Position numbers and translations under genes: made by a program. From positions 40,305-104,304 of the forward strand of contig CAVYSN010000022.1 in NCBI GenBank assembly GCA_963771165.1: a stretch of 64,000 nucleotides of DNA. The letters are read 5' to 3'. Below are positions 31,776 to 38,793 of the stretch, one piece after another. The notes below the pieces were generated by a model that saw only the letters and a list, made by a program, of their open reading frames with translations, was not told where the DNA came from and did no database searches. The stretch comes from an uncultured bacterium. Lineage in GTDB: Bacteria > Acidobacteriota > HRBIN11 > JAKEFK01. Each line of letters starts with the position of its first letter. Within the stretch, counting starts at the first letter, position 1.

Positions 31776-32117
31776 TTAAAAACTGAAATGCACATCTTCC
31801 TCATCGGGAAGATCCATGAATTCCAACACGGAATGTCCGACCCGTTCTTGAAATTGTTCAGAAAAAGATTTGTACATTCCGAAATTCTCATCAAGCGTCA
31901 CTTTTTCAACGCGCATCATGGGCAGAAACATAGTGCTGAGACTCATGCTTTCCGTACTATTTGCAACAGAACGGATCCAGTCCTGAAAGGAGTTGATGTC
32001 GATTCCGCGAAGAGTGATGCCGAAGCTGTTGATCGAAAGCAGAACACCCCAGATTTTCTCGCGAGGATTCTGAAGACTCAGAATGACAGCCGATCTGGTT
32101 GTTAGGTTCTTAGGCAC
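31776..32117 (-). CDS. Conserved hypothetical small protein
   Basis: [10 protein letters not shown]....[12 protein letters not shown]...F.PM.RVE; GTG start overlapping thiolase stop. Confidence 0.7.
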
Positions 32118-33291
32118 GTTCCACCACCGCAGCGATCCCCTGCCCCCCACCGATGCACAAACCTGCGACACCCAGGTTGTAATTGTGATCTTCCATTGCA
32201 TGCAGCAAGGTGACCAGCACTCTTGCTCCGCTTGCTCCGATGGGATGGCCCAATGCGATCGCTCCTCCGCGTATATTGACTCGTTCCGGATCAATTTTCA
32301 ACTCCGACAGAACAGCCAGAGATTGAACGGCAAACGCTTCATTCAATTCAAACAGATCGATATCAGAGATTTTCAGGTTTGCCTTTTTCAATGCTTTCTG
32401 CACTGCATGGATCGGACCAAGCCCCATCACGGAAGGCTCCACACCCGCGGATGCATAAGAGCGAAGGTATGCCATCGGCTTGATTCCACGATCCCTGCGC
32501 ATTTGCTTCGGTCATCAGAACAATCGCTGCGGCCCCATCGTTGATGCCGGAAGCATTGCCGGCTGTTACGCTGCCCGATTCCTTGAACGCAGGTTTGAGT
32601 TTTGCAAGCGATTCTGCATTCGTTTCGCCTCGCGGGTATTCATCCGTATCGAACATTTTAGGCTCCCCTTTCTTTTGGGGTATGCGGAACAGGCACAATT
32701 TCACGTTTAAATTTTCCTTCGGCGATGGCCGCAACAGCGCGCCGCTGGCTTAACGCCGCAAATTCATCTTGTGCCGACCTGCGTGATTCCGTACTTCTCC
32801 GCAATATTTTCCGCTGTGATGCCCATGTGTACATCGCACATCGCACAGGATAATCCATCGCTGATCATGGAATCGATCAGTTCGCCATGACCCAGGCGAT
32901 AGCCGTACCGGGCATCCTTCAATAAATAAGGAGCACGGCTCATATTTTCGGTGCCACCCGCTACGATGATTTGTCCATCTCCGCAATGGATCGCCTGCGC
33001 CCCCAGTGTAATCGCTTTCATTCCCGAGCCACAGACTTTGTTGATTGTCGTTGAAGGCACGGTCACAGGAATCTTTGCCTTGATTGCAGCCTGCCGTGCG
33101 GGATTTTGCCCGAGTCCTGCTTGTAAAACATTTCCTATTAAAACTTCATCGACCTCATCAGGACGAACCGTCGATCTGGTCAATGCTTCCTGAATGCAGA
33201 TGGCTGCGAGATCGACGGCAGGTGTTTGAACCAGTGCGCCGCCGAATTTCCCGATCGCCGTTCTGACTGCAGATGTAATTGCGATTCTCAT
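32110..33291 (-). CDS. atoB: Acetyl-CoA C-acetyltransferase (thiolase), split by three +1 frameshifts (~32781, ~32684, ~32497)
   Basis: [24 protein letters not shown] motifs all present; corrected length 392 aa. Confidence 0.92.
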
Positions 33292-33396
33292 ATGCCCTCC
33301 GGGCGTTGAAAGCGTTGAAGATGATAGAATTGGATCAAACTGTTTGTACAAGCACTTTGATCTCTGTCGACACAGTCAACACCTTCTATCTCCTGA

Positions 33397-35156: not shown

Positions 35157-36117
35157 TTAACCTTTAACCTTTAACTTCTCGAGAAGTTCGCGAACGACTG
35201 TGTACGGGTCGACGCGACGCAATGCGATATCCTCAATCCTTTGCGAGATTCCGAATCGTTCAAATCCCCTGTCAACAATTTGGGTAAGGATTTCCGACTC
35301 CAGTGCATCAATAAGACGTTGGCGATTCTGCAAAAGGATTTTACCCTGAAGTTTTCCGCTTTTTTTCAAATACACACCGTGCTCAGCGATGACGCCGGCA
35401 AGGACATCGATGCCAATATTGTTCGTGGCTTGAGTTTTCAGGATGCGCGGCCGCCAGTCTTCATCCGAAACCGCTTGAAAATAGGATAGCGAATTCTGAA
35501 GTTCCATTTCCATCTTATCCGCATCCGCCCGGTCGGACTTATTGACAACAAGCAAATCAGCGATCTCCATCAGACCTGCTTTCATGGCCTGCACCTCATC
35601 TCCAAGACCAGGCATTAATACTACAACCGTAGTATTTACAAGCTTCACGATGTCGATTTCGTCCTGGCCCGACACCGACCGTTTCCACGAGAATCACGTC
35701 TTTGCCTGAAGCATTCATCAGATCCATGACATCGAACGTGGCGGCAGCGATTCCGCCCAGCTTCCCGCGCGTTGCCATACTGCGGATAAAGACTCCCGGA
35801 TCCGTGTAGTGTTGTTGCATCCGGATCCGGTCTCCGAGAATAGCTCCACCCGTGAATGGACTGCTCGGATCGACTGCAATCACCCCGACGGTCTTTCCCT
35901 GACCCCGATAGATCGAGATCAACCGGTCCACGATGGAGCTTTTTCCCACACCGGCAGGACCGGTAATGCCGATCAAAAGGATATCTCGACCTCTGGTGTA
36001 AACCGATTTCAAAATTTCATAAGCTCGGGGATCTCTGTTCTCTACCAGAGTAATCGCACGAGAAAGAGCCTTTGCATCACCTTTCAGTAACCCTTCAATA
36101 AGATGATCAACAGACAT
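35157..36117 (-). CDS. meaB: Methylmalonyl-CoA mutase-associated GTPase MeaB/ArgK; +1 frameshift at ~35667
   Basis: G.AGVGKS, DPSSP.TGG.ILGDRIRM, ETVGVGQ.E, NKSD; corrected length 319 aa. Confidence 0.92.
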
Positions 36118-36191
36118 AGACTGAATTCTCTGCGGCTTAATTCTACTTTCCTTGCGACTTTGCATTACAGTACGTCAAATCTATATTTTTA

Positions 36192-36340: not shown

Positions 36341-37480
36341 CTACTTCAGGATTTGCTTCGCAATGGCGATCCTTTGAATCTCGGAGGTGCCTTCCCCGAT
36401 CGTAAGAAGTTTTGCATCTCTGTAGTATTTTTCAGCAAGAAACTCTTTAATGTACCCGTAACCGCCGTGGATTTGAACGCACCGGTCCGCGGCACGGACG
36501 GCAGCTTCACTCGCATAAAGTTTGGCCATGAATGCTTCTTTGGCAAACTTATGCCCGTTTTGACGAAGCCATGCGGCACGATAAGTTAACAAACGTGCCG
36601 CCTCAATTTCAGTGGCCATATCAGCGAGCATCCATTGAATGGCTTGATAATCGGCAATGGGGTGACCGAATTGCCTTCGTTGTTTCGAATACTTTAGAGC
36701 TAATTCCAACGCTCCCTGCGCAAGGCCAACGGATAGGGCGGCGATTGCAATCCGCCCACCTTCCAGAATTTGCATACTTTGCCTAAAACCCATTCCTGCT
36801 TTACCGATCACGTTTTCATCAGGCACTTCGCAGTCTTCGAAATTCAGCGAAGATGTATCGCTTGCGCGATGTCCTAATTTATCTTCCTTTTTGGATGCTC
36901 GAAAGCCGGGCGTGCCCTTCTCTATAATGAATGCAGTAATTCCGTCCTTGGGGTTGCTCCGATCCGTCACCGCCATAACAACAGCGATATCCCCCACGGT
37001 CCCATGCGTAATGAAATTTTTCGTTCCATTCAAAATCCAACCGCCGTTCTTCTTATGCGCAACGGTCTGAAGCCCCTTAGCGTCACTGCCCGCATTCGGT
37101 TCTGTCAAAGCCCACGCGCCGATCTTTTGACCAGAGGCAAGCTGGGTCAGGTATTTTTTCTTTTGCTCTTCATTTCCAAAAAGAAAAATATGATTCGAGC
37201 AGAGTCCGTTGTGCGCCGCCACTCCCAAACCAATGGAAGGATCAACGCGTCCCAGTTCTTCGATGACGCAAGCATAATCCAGATACGTCATTCCGGCGCC
37301 GCCGTATTCGTGGGGGAAGACAACCCCGAGCAGGCCCAGTTGCCCGAGCTTGGTCATGATTTCGAGCGGGAATTCCTGCGTTTCATCAAAGTATCGGACT
37401 TTCGGAGCTATTTCGTTTTCGGCAAACTCCCGCACCATCTGGCGGGTTAATTCCTGATCTTCGCTAAAAGTAAAATCCAC
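36341..37480 (-). CDS. Acyl-CoA dehydrogenase
   Basis: LTEPNAGSD, K.FIT.G, R.QFG, QIHGGYGY, IGEGTSEIQR. Confidence 0.96.
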   Translation of the reverse strand: MDFTFSEDQELTRQMVREFAENEIAPKVRYFDETQEFPLEIMTKLGQLGLLGVVFPHEYGGAGMTYLDYACVIEELGRVDPSIGLGVAAHNGLCSNHIFLFGNEEQKKKYLTQLASGQKIGAWALTEPNAGSDAKGLQTVAHKKNGGWILNGTKNFITHGTVGDIAVVMAVTDRSNPKDGITAFIIEKGTPGFRASKKEDKLGHRASDTSSLNFEDCEVPDENVIGKAGMGFRQSMQILEGGRIAIAALSVGLAQGALELALKYSKQRRQFGHPIADYQAIQWMLADMATEIEAARLLTYRAAWLRQNGHKFAKEAFMAKLYASEAAVRAADRCVQIHGGYGYIKEFLAEKYYRDAKLLTIGEGTSEIQRIAIAKQILK

Positions 37481-37489
37481 AAAACTCCT

Positions 37490-38692
37490 CTACATGACGT
37501 TGATGAACACCGGAATCTTCAACTGCGGTTGGTCCACGTTATCGGTGTTCACAACAATCTCGCCTCTGGTATTGCCTTTCTTGTTTCTGTCCATATCGAG
37601 CAAGCGAACGGTCAATTGATATGTGCCTGGATTAGAACCAGCTGCTTTCTTGTCCACTTTGACGGAGGGCAAAGTGGAACGAAGATCGAGGACATGAAAA
37701 GTCTTACCGTTTGAAATTTGAATGGAAATCTCCTGCGGATCCGGCAGATCTGCAAGTTTCAAAGGTTTAACGGCTGTAGATTGCACCCAGCCGATGCGCT
37801 GAACCGGAACCGATTGAGCCGTACCTTCTTTCTGAAAAGTGATCACCTGCAACCAGCCTTTCGATTCATTAATCACTTTGAGTTTGCGCCCCGCTGCCAC
37901 TTTTTCCACTACTGCCGCGGCCGGATCGGCTGCCTGCATAACATTCACTGACTCGTTTACCAGTACTTCTTCCGGATATCCCTTCAAAACGAAGGAAATA
38001 ATTCTTGGAGTCACCTGTAGCGGTCCTTGAACCATGATGATCACGGGTACGATAACTTCCTTGATCGGACCTTCGACAGGGATTTGGATTTCCGTGGCGT
38101 GCGTCCCGATGATGTCGGACTTTTTGAGATCAACAGTTAATTTTTGTCGTCCGTTTTTGTCCGGCGTTAACTTTGCGGAAATCAATTCGGACCTTACAAC
38201 AGGAGGCAAGAGTTTCACGGAAGGATCCGGCATCAGGAATAAATCCATAGTTTTCAGAGTACCTTTGCTGACCGAAAAACGTATTTGCTCGGTTGGTTGA
38301 ACATCCACCAGTGTCTTTATTGTTGCTTTGATAACCACTTTTGCGTCGGGACGTTTCGGATCATTCGTTTTTATGTCAACCAATTTCTGAACAGGACCTT
38401 TCGAATGCCCAATATCGACGCTTGCGTAAATTTTACCTTCCGAACCGGGAGGTATGACCTTGTCAAATCTGGTCACGGTGCAGCCTCACCCGGGTTTTAC
38501 ATCAAAAATCCGTAGTTCTCCGTTCCCTGTATTCTTGATCACAAAAACGTGTTCAAGAGGTGCACCTGTTCGAACCACAACGCCCGCATCATAGATCTCC
38601 TGATCGATAACCATGCTCGGCTTTCCATCTTGAGCGAAGGAAAGTGTCAGAACGAACAGCAGAACGATGAAAATTGGCAAAACTCGTTTCAT
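37490..38692 (-). CDS. Secreted DUF1573-type (Ig-like) protein, probable selenoprotein (TGA 38486-38488 in KPG-U-GCT)
   Basis: Two ORFs in the same frame joined by one TGA: signal peptide, F.IKNTG...L.I..VKPG*GCT......IPPG.EG.I, TNDP; 400 aa if read through. Confidence 0.85.
38454..38476 (-). promoter_or_regulatory. Candidate SECIS hairpin
   Basis: GTGACC-AGATTTGACAA-GGTCAT stem-loop at +10..+32 after the TGA, G at second loop position. Confidence 0.45.
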
Positions 38693-38793
38693 TTGGGGTT
38701 CAACTCCCGTTGCGAAAAATCACTTCACAATATCATAAAAGGCCGGTGGCCTAAAGTTCAAGGTTGAATGTTCTGGGTTACACTTCTTTACAG

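Follow-up and report, generated by a model that had tools for sequence, protein, structure and literature searches.

A predicted DUF1573 selenoprotein gene with an in-frame TGA and two downstream hairpins in an uncultured Acidobacteriota bacterium

Selenoproteins of the DUF1573 family, in which selenocysteine (Sec, U) occupies the first position of a UGC motif, have been catalogued since 2007-2008 as OS_HP2, and this kind of protein is therefore already known. A study of the Olavius symbiont metagenome reported a new selenoprotein family under the name OS_HP2, for Olavius symbiont hypothetical protein 2 (PMC1976440), and the Global Ocean Sampling study described it by pfam07610, the motif UxC and 354 Cys homologues (PMC2398784); DUF1573 selenoproteins with UGC are also listed in the reviews PMC9312934 and PMC13188914. 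A literature search, which left supplements aside, returned nothing on the selenocysteine insertion sequence (SECIS), the architecture or the function of OS_HP2/DUF1573 selenoproteins. The present analysis deals with a stretch of 64,000 nucleotides (nt), hereafter the window, from contig CAVYSN010000022.1 of an uncultured Acidobacteriota bacterium (assembly GCA_963771165.1), and with a gene on its minus strand in which a DUF1573 domain is interrupted by an in-frame TGA. This gene shares with OS_HP2 the Pfam domain and a U in place of the first Cys of C-G-C; it differs in that the domain heads a protein of 400 amino acids (aa) that also comprises an SH3-like domain and a further two beta-sandwiches, and in that the gene is surrounded by a fixed housekeeping neighbourhood.

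The explanation considered best, with a probability of roughly 0.85, is that the locus is one gene, that UGA codon 69 is decoded as Sec by SelA, SelB, SelD and tRNA-Sec, and that the product is an envelope protein. The three elements on which this explanation is built are the following:

37490..38692, minus strand: whole predicted selenoprotein gene, 400 codons plus a TAG stop (37492-37490), with one in-frame TGA.
38486..38488, minus strand: TGA codon 69, read as Sec from the sequence, the homologous loci and the relatives.
38480..38482, minus strand: TGC codon 71, the partner Cys of U-G-C, invariant in 39 of 39 domain sequences.

The frame runs from the ATG at 38692-38690 to the TAG at 37490, and the TGA is its sole interruption, followed by GGC TGC ACC (38485-38477). 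Standard calling of open reading frames (ORFs) yields a 68-codon ORF (38486-38692) and a 328-codon ORF that begins at GTG 38476 (37490-38476). The original prediction, which had been made from the letters of the window, held that these two ORFs share a frame and are separated by TGA-GGC-TGC-ACC, and this was confirmed from the sequence and the ORF list; as far as the sequence can tell, they are one gene. When the TGA was read as U, a product of exactly 400 residues was obtained, MKRVLPIFIVLLFVLTLSFAQDGKP...IFDVKPG-U-GCTVTRFDKVIPPGSEGK..., with the motif in the context ...VKPG-U-GCT...IPPG...; apart from U69 and C71, the product has no Cys-type residue.

The placement of the TGA within the family gives the reading its first support. 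The Pfam DUF1573 model (PF07610) spans the TGA from aa 29 to 123, with 65.3 bits and an E-value of 5e-18 against a cut-off of 26.1, and the TGA aligns with the first Cys of the C-G-C-T motif, here U-G-C-T, just as the original prediction had proposed. In an alignment of 39 DUF1573 domains (18 Cys and 21 Sec forms), invariance was confined to N54, G56, U/C69, G70, C71 and G83, and the TGA is consequently the first Cys of the only conserved functional motif. That C-G-C-T defines the family is our own reading of these alignments and not a curated statement. Among the NCBIfam models, the best match was NF041425, the 'OS_HP2 family (seleno)protein', with 83 bits over the full protein and 84 bits when the domain was scored by itself, below the curated cut-off of 100 bits; the 18 Acidobacteriota-type Sec and Cys domains tested all remained under 100 bits as well (53-94). 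The motif given for OS_HP2, UxC with Sec first, is present here. Hence the protein appears to be a relative within DUF1573 that stands outside NF041425 proper by the NCBI cut-off.

The related loci provide the second line of evidence. At the equivalent of codon 69, 53 loci from genome and metagenome collections carried TGA 21 times, TGC or TGT 32 times and GAC twice, two loci with tandem copies, one Cys and one Sec, being counted twice. TAA or TAG occupied this position in none of the 53, and the alternation of TGA with TGC, which had been named as a check on the claim, was thus observed. Among the close orthologues (44-78% identity over aa 1-135), 18 carried TGA and 2 carried TGC, and the high-scoring segment pairs (HSPs) crossed the stop. 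In the 18 orthologous loci of other assemblies with the identical in-frame TGA, the tblastn HSPs covered aa 1-135 at 46-78% identity, and this recurrence of the same TGA with both flanks conserved is more than chance would give. The class of the window's organism was represented by 13 genomes. Within its family, five of the six other genomes held an orthologue, with TGA in G010 (same genus), G007 and G008, and Cys in G009 (same genus) and G006. In a maximum-likelihood tree of 25 rows, 8 of which were labelled Sec merely since the database protein begins just past the motif, at least three changes between Sec and Cys were found, with Cys forms nested among Sec forms; since the root was set at the midpoint, a direction from Sec to Cys is only presumed. 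Moreover, the gene order RluA, divergent methyltransferase, selenoprotein gene, acyl-CoA dehydrogenase (ACAD) and MeaB was common to the Sec forms and to the Cys form L025, whose synteny extends to UvrB (UvrB-RluA-gene-ACAD-MeaB) as in the Sec forms, and both the TGA and the TGC forms of the same genus lie in the RluA-methyltransferase-gene-ACAD-MeaB neighbourhood. Across the syntenic loci, ACAD was 82-92% identical, against 42-78% for the selenoprotein.

These comparisons bear directly on the reading of the TGA as a true stop, in which the locus would be a decaying pseudogene, or would encode two products, a secreted peptide of 68 aa and, from GTG 38476, an independent protein of 328 aa. Gene callers do annotate it in this way, and the database contains the 328-aa ORF together with 24 similar truncated proteins. 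However, the break falls inside a beta-sandwich domain that folds as one unit in the model, the flanks of the break stay in a common, conserved frame in all orthologues, the frame is otherwise free of stops and frameshifts, and the 328-aa product would have no signal peptide. The protein database includes six full-length orthologues (400-411 aa, 64-68% identity) with P-G-C-G-C-T in this place, while the 24 further proteins cover just 81-82% of the query, and all nine of these that were aligned begin with (M/V)T.[FY]DK, where the earliest start codon past U-G-C-T lies. A true stop would also leave the synonymous constraint that follows the TGA, described below, unexplained. Even with the damaged appearance of SelA in this assembly, which speaks in its favour, this reading is judged highly improbable.

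A base-calling or assembly error, by which the TGC or TGT of an ordinary Cys-form DUF1573 gene would have become TGA, has to be weighed against the quality of the assembly, since confidence in the base call here rests on conservation in other assemblies. The genome comprises 4.46 Mb in 22 contigs and is 73% complete. It does have errors, as frameshifts split MeaB, thiolase and SelA, and Cys forms do exist in the same genus (G009). The MeaB GTPase gene (35157-36165, minus strand) consists of two overlapping ORFs with a 1-nt frameshift near 35596-35675, after which the canonical ...ETVGVGQ.E... motif resumes in another frame, and this split is probably an assembly indel. The thiolase gene (32110-33351, minus strand) is distributed over three ORFs (Thiolase_N 1-169, Thiolase_N 201-259 and Thiolase_C), so that two frameshifts are implied. 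Together with the SelA gene, these splits suggest an indel-prone assembly; the errors seen are indels and not substitutions. Furthermore, the same TGA occurs in the 18 orthologous loci of other assemblies and also in G007, G008 and G010, and the window shares the Sec-form nucleotide signature after the TGA, with CCT as codon 81 and TCG as codon 84, two codons that are altered in the same-genus Cys form L083. A base error is for these reasons scarcely credible.

The genome also holds the apparatus that Sec decoding requires, the absence of which would have counted against the original prediction. A tRNA-Sec was found with 65.6 bits and was called by ARAGORN as tRNA-SeC with anticodon tca, and profile matches were obtained for SelA (339 bits), SelB (396.6 bits) and SelD (351.6 bits). 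The SelD gene (G000:C21:339098) has an in-frame TGA of its own (...KSGG-U-AGK...), as does a peroxiredoxin/BCP gene (G000:C9:408948-409313; ...RTPG-U-TIE...), and both TGAs sit at catalytic Cys positions. A TGA-containing formate dehydrogenase gene (FdhA), looked for in the genome as a further SECIS example, was not found. One observation weighs against the best explanation at this point: SelA lies in three pieces over two frames (G000:C14:159672-160742), and if this split were real, the Sec pathway of the organism would be broken. Given that MeaB and thiolase are likewise frameshifted and that SelA is intact in five of five relatives, the fragmentation is inferred to reflect assembly indels.

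Insertion of an amino acid at the UGA without selenium, either by near-cognate readthrough with Trp, Cys or Arg or under a reassigned code, was considered as well. Near-cognate tRNAs are known to read through UGA in bacteria, which counts in favour of this possibility. Nevertheless, TGA ends 788 of the 1925 long frames and is the commonest stop, and the genetic code is therefore standard; the other in-frame TGAs in known families were found only at the catalytic Cys of SelD and of the peroxiredoxin; the codon alternates with Cys codons only, not with those of Trp or Arg; and tRNA-Sec and SelB are present. Decoding without selenium is on these grounds very unlikely.

Sec decoding of codon 69 would be directed by an element of two hairpins within the 66 nt after the UGA. 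Its parts are:

38454..38476, minus strand: hairpin 1, GUGACC/GGUCAU, a 6-bp stem closing an 11-nt loop, separated from the UGA by 9 nt.
38435..38453, minus strand: hairpin 2, ACCU.CCG-GUU-CGG.AGGU, abutting hairpin 1, with a loop that starts 40 nt after the UGA.
38423..38476, minus strand: zone of suppressed synonymous change, codons 73-90.

A modest hairpin GTGACC-N11-GGTCAT had already been pointed out after the TGA, and it is indeed present at 38476-38454; it is, however, only the first of two, and the second (38453-38435) is the more constrained and shows the strongest conservation within the candidate SECIS. The constraint was visible at synonymous sites. In 16 non-redundant Sec-form genes, the synonymous codon identity amounted to 0.87-0.94 over codons 73-90, and to 0.93-0.94 over codons 76-90, compared with 0.46 gene-wide. 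Over codons 70-90, pairs of Sec forms reached 0.50-1.00 (most of them 0.75-0.95), compared with 0.32-0.66 in the rest of the gene; when a Sec form was paired with one of the distant Cys forms L025 and L059, the value for these codons was 0.25-0.40, which equals background. The pair of Cys forms L025/L059 showed no excess, with 0.65 in the zone and 0.68 elsewhere. From this pattern at synonymous sites, there is certainly an RNA element under selection after the UGA.

Changes in individual orthologues were informative about the two stems. Hairpin 1 was kept or extended in the orthologues and lengthened in L084 and L085 by a Lys>Arg change, and the C.A mismatch of hairpin 2 was converted to G-C in L053 (Pro>Ala, Glu>Ala) and to U-A in L084 (Pro>Ser). 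In hairpin 2 of the same-genus Cys form L083, precisely two positions differed, one through a synonymous TCG>TCC that breaks a pair. Codon 81 (38447-38449) supplies part of the hairpin 2 stem with its Pro, and the FDKVI-type Sec forms read I-P-P-G at this place where the Cys forms mostly read I-A-P-G; the RNA element thus seems to constrain the protein sequence, with Pro81 in Sec forms and Ala81 in Cys forms.

The arrangement extends beyond the orthologues. DUF1573 was detected in 155 of 301 genomes of the phylum (E ≤1e-8), in a scan that includes G035, flagged unpublished, and one in-frame TGA was present in 24 of the 150 DUF1573 matches listed from it. Twenty of these TGA-bearing regions were fetched; 18 had the TGA at U-G-C-[TS] followed by two hairpins, an arrangement that persists despite quite different protein sequences, and no such TGA site was found in the other two (L104 and L108). 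Sec-bearing DUF1573 domains therefore look common in Acidobacteriota, as far as these predicted sites go. A hairpin at the place of hairpin 1 was present in 18 of the 18 other Sec-DUF1573 genes examined, and in other clades it takes a canonical form, for example GGCCGU-GGUC-ACGGCC in L091. The first hairpin window folded at -9.6 kcal/mol in 20 non-redundant Sec genes versus -6.0 kcal/mol in 26 Cys genes (Mann-Whitney p 5e-5) and the second at -9.7 versus -6.8 kcal/mol (p 0.002), p-values that are overstated by the relatedness of the sequences, in a comparison whose Cys set has the higher G+C. In the family alignment of 26 sequences, helix 1 was paired in 72.5% of cases, with double changes at 5 of its 7 pairs.

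Several results weigh against taking the two hairpins as a SECIS. The same-genus Cys form L083 is intermediate in synonymous identity, with 0.47-0.78 in pairs with Sec forms. The folding energies (-6.2 kcal/mol for hairpin 2 alone, -12.9 kcal/mol for both hairpins together) are no better than those of shuffles (z -0.4 to -1.4). The covariation check, which had been suggested for the SECIS, came out weak: the family-wide value of 0.158 is moderate and beats 500 of 500 shuffles, but the structure slid by +3 gives 0.146, and within the orthologues the helices are near-invariant (98.5% paired) with no double changes, so that covariation is nearly absent there. No common structure was returned by RNAalifold for the 26-sequence family alignment, because the hairpins shift register between clades. 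The pairing of hairpin 2 partly follows from the protein, as its stem lies on the conserved P-P-G-x-E-G codons. Finally, the bacterial SECIS consensus specifies a loop of 3-9 nt, a spacing of 16-37 nt, an energy of -7.5 kcal/mol and a conserved G (PMC13188914); hairpin 1 deviates from it by its 11-nt loop, its 15-nt spacing and the lack of the conserved G, and hairpin 2 by its 40-nt spacing and its -6.2 kcal/mol where -7.5 is required. In searches of Rfam with the window, no family reached its gathering score, and around the TGA there were two snoRNA matches at chance level (E ~8).

In comparison with the canonical bacterial SECIS of the Zhang and Gladyshev consensus, the element is likewise a stem-loop structure in the coding region just past the UGA, and hairpin 2 is alike in its 3-nt loop starting with G-U and its 7-pair stem; it differs in having two adjacent hairpins, of which the one with the GUU loop is 40 nt from the UGA. 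The SelD gene of the same genome has a canonical SECIS, with a 9-nt spacer, an 8-bp stem, a GUU loop and a spacing of 17 nt. A bipartite model would accommodate these features: the GUU hairpin would bind SelB from a position beyond the 16-37 nt consensus window, and an obligatory first hairpin would fold away the intervening 23 nt, so that the second could reach the ribosome entrance; the RNA would also dictate the protein sequence at residue 81. That hairpin 2 is the SelB-binding part and that hairpin 1 folds so as to bring it near the ribosome is somewhat favoured for this clade. The wider proposal, that a bipartite SECIS is characteristic of this orthologue group or of Sec-DUF1573 genes generally, and that Acidobacteriota possess abundant envelope selenoproteins engaged in selenol-based disulfide exchange, is put forward tentatively and must be regarded as doubtful.

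With Sec at codon 69, the product is predicted to be composed of the following parts:

38633..38692, minus strand: signal peptide, about aa 1-20 (MKR, a hydrophobic core, then SFA before and QD after the cleavage site deduced from the sequence).
38324..38608, minus strand: DUF1573 (ASH/PapD-like) beta-sandwich, aa 29-123, with U69-G70-C71-T72, from Pfam and the domain model.
37988..38302, minus strand: second beta-sandwich, aa 131-235, from the model, with no Pfam family.
37757..37987, minus strand: SH3-like domain, aa 236-312, from SH3_3 and a small beta-barrel in the model.
37493..37756, minus strand: C-terminal beta-sandwich, aa 313-400, without Cys, from the model, with no Pfam family above cut-off.

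The translation and the structural model agree with what had been claimed for the readthrough product, namely an exported 400-aa multi-Ig protein with an SH3-like insert. Its predicted signal peptide appears in the model as a low-confidence helix (aa 5-18) and is conserved in the orthologues. The SH3_3 score (PF08239, cut-off 27) was 24.6 bits over the full-length protein and 28.5 bits when aa 236-312 were scanned by themselves, a barrel was modelled at about aa 242-312, and the orthologues carry precomputed PF08239 matches. The mean predicted local distance difference test (pLDDT) of the AlphaFold models was 87.9 for the whole protein (14 sequences) and 95.1 for the first domain (39 sequences), in which U69-G70 forms the turn between strands 60-67 and 71-76, and the U-G-C motif is exposed. 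This domain resembles sandwiches of the PapD/ASH/MSP type. Its closest solved fold was 2QSV (2qsv_A), an uncharacterised Porphyromonas gingivalis protein (Z 13.5, root-mean-square deviation 1.6 Å over 99 residues, 23% identity), which was also its sole significant PDB profile match (E 1.8e-5); in 2QSV, however, the C-G-C motif is missing and 'RNPAL' aligns there. The next structural matches were the C-terminal domains of VesB/VesC and HYDIN. By sequence, the whole protein had no PDB match at E ≤1, its whole model retrieved by Foldseek generic multi-Ig chains alone (HYDIN, cadherins, SbsB), and no DUF1573 structure bearing C-G-C was found in the PDB searches. The product is best described as a predicted exported beta-sandwich protein whose single conserved reactive feature would be Sec-Gly-Cys in an exposed turn.

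As to its function, the 400-aa product would be exported by means of its predicted Sec-type signal peptide and would display, in order, the DUF1573 beta-sandwich, the second beta-sandwich, the SH3-like domain and the third beta-sandwich. The U69-C71 pair would cycle between selenol/thiol and selenenylsulfide, and U-G-C would act in the cell envelope as the centre of a thiol-disulfide oxidoreductase or isomerase, like CxC redox sites, while the remaining domains would hold the substrate or the cell wall. Such a redox function, by analogy, is given about an even chance. It is suggested because CxC motifs are redox-active, as in CsgC, because most bacterial selenoproteins are redox proteins (PMC2398784), and because a TlpA-like redoxin is found by tandem DUF1573 genes. 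CsgC, an Ig-fold protein of the periplasm, carries an invariant CxC where a loop joins a strand and has an E0' of -139 mV, and the CGC tripeptide is quoted at -167 mV in the same source (PMC3173608). Like the product predicted here, both CsgC and nDsbD are Ig-type beta-sandwiches of the periplasm in which a Cys pair, placed where a loop meets a strand, is the sole functional feature, and CsgC may be the best model for the workings of a U-G-C site on such a fold; neither has a detectable sequence relation to this protein, and the middle residue of CxC is L/V in CsgC and Gly here. We know of no Sec form of CsgC. Against a redox role, as against the metal-binding alternative below, stand the lack of any partner gene conserved around the orthologues and the finding that, besides the motif, only structural residues of the N, G and P-G type are conserved in the 39 domains. 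Nor were CsgC, nDsbD and Cox11 among the 50 best of 48,161 chains in the fold comparison, although their absence from these does not exclude a structural kinship.

Alternatively, the motif might form a soft-metal site for Cu(I), Hg(II), Cd or Zn, within one chain or in a dimer, and the protein would then serve as an envelope metallochaperone or scavenger rather than as a redox catalyst. The analogy is with Cox11, the copper chaperone of the CuB site, which likewise has an Ig-like beta fold and binds Cu(I) by the two Cys of a C-x-C (CFCF) on a surface loop (PMC9172173). The motif of the present model is also in an exposed turn, and catalogued selenoproteins include the metal proteins MerP, MerT-like, cation ATPase and CobW-like (PMC2398784, PMC9312934). 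Yet the alignment of 39 domains revealed no additional conserved ligand of the His, Met, Asp or Cys type, genes for metal resistance or for the assembly of cytochrome oxidase were not near in any locus examined, and Cox11 was missing from the 50 best fold matches, which says little either way. Cox11 itself has a membrane anchor, a third essential Cys, a conserved Lys and oxidase gene neighbours, none of which are seen here, where U69 and C71 stand alone, the signal peptide is of the cleavable type instead of an anchor, and oxidase genes are not nearby. A metal site is accordingly a possible but doubtful proposal, and a function other than redox or metal binding is unlikely.

The neighbourhoods of distant DUF1573 loci were heterogeneous, including Mur ligase, citrate synthase, a multihaem cytochrome and, at two related loci, a TlpA-like redoxin, and no consistent partner gene emerged around them. 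Tandem DUF1573 genes occur on Krumholzibacteria-type contigs (L031:3001-4943, L035:944-2364 and L065:943-2281), where in L031 and L035 a Sec copy comes after a Cys copy and in L065 both copies are Cys forms; in L031 and L065 they are followed on the same strand by a TlpA-like Redoxin/Thioredoxin_8 gene. At L063:2238-5314, the gene of a 556-aa Cys-form DUF1573 protein has a multihaem cytochrome c554-like gene directly after it.

Three further features adjoin the gene in the window:

38704..38708, minus strand: GGGAG, resembling a ribosome-binding site, 11 nt upstream of the ATG, proposed from the sequence.
38732..38761, minus strand: promoter-like TTGAAC-18-TATGAT, with 9 of 12 consensus matches, weak.
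36341..37480, minus strand: ACAD gene, from Pfam, a separate conserved neighbour that starts 9 nt after the selenoprotein stop.

Promoter-like sites were no more numerous in the region than in shuffles. The ACAD gene 9 nt downstream on the same strand had been noticed before and was corroborated by Pfam; it was the downstream neighbour in eight of the eight orthologous loci that reach that far. The original prediction had also counted this TGA as the second recoded one, which implies another in the window, and no convincing candidate emerged from crude genome-wide screens for TGA-split genes (a hairpin filter, a hexamer coding score for split frames with coding potential on either side, and TGA next to Cys), which were too noisy and could have missed a short or unusual selenoprotein gene.

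Taken as it stands, the locus is, on sequence comparison, a genuine selenoprotein gene, and nothing in it overturns current knowledge. It provides a clear synonymous-site footprint of its candidate SECIS and an arrangement of two hairpins that is slightly off-consensus. Seen as such a footprint, the RNA element may be useful for the rules of SECIS recognition and for the study of Sec-to-Cys replacement, for which the locus offers a natural series of Sec and Cys orthologues in one genus, with identical synteny and at least three switches. For the lineage itself, the split gene calls mean that a conserved envelope protein is mis-annotated, being represented in databases by the 328-aa fragment and the 24 truncated proteins.

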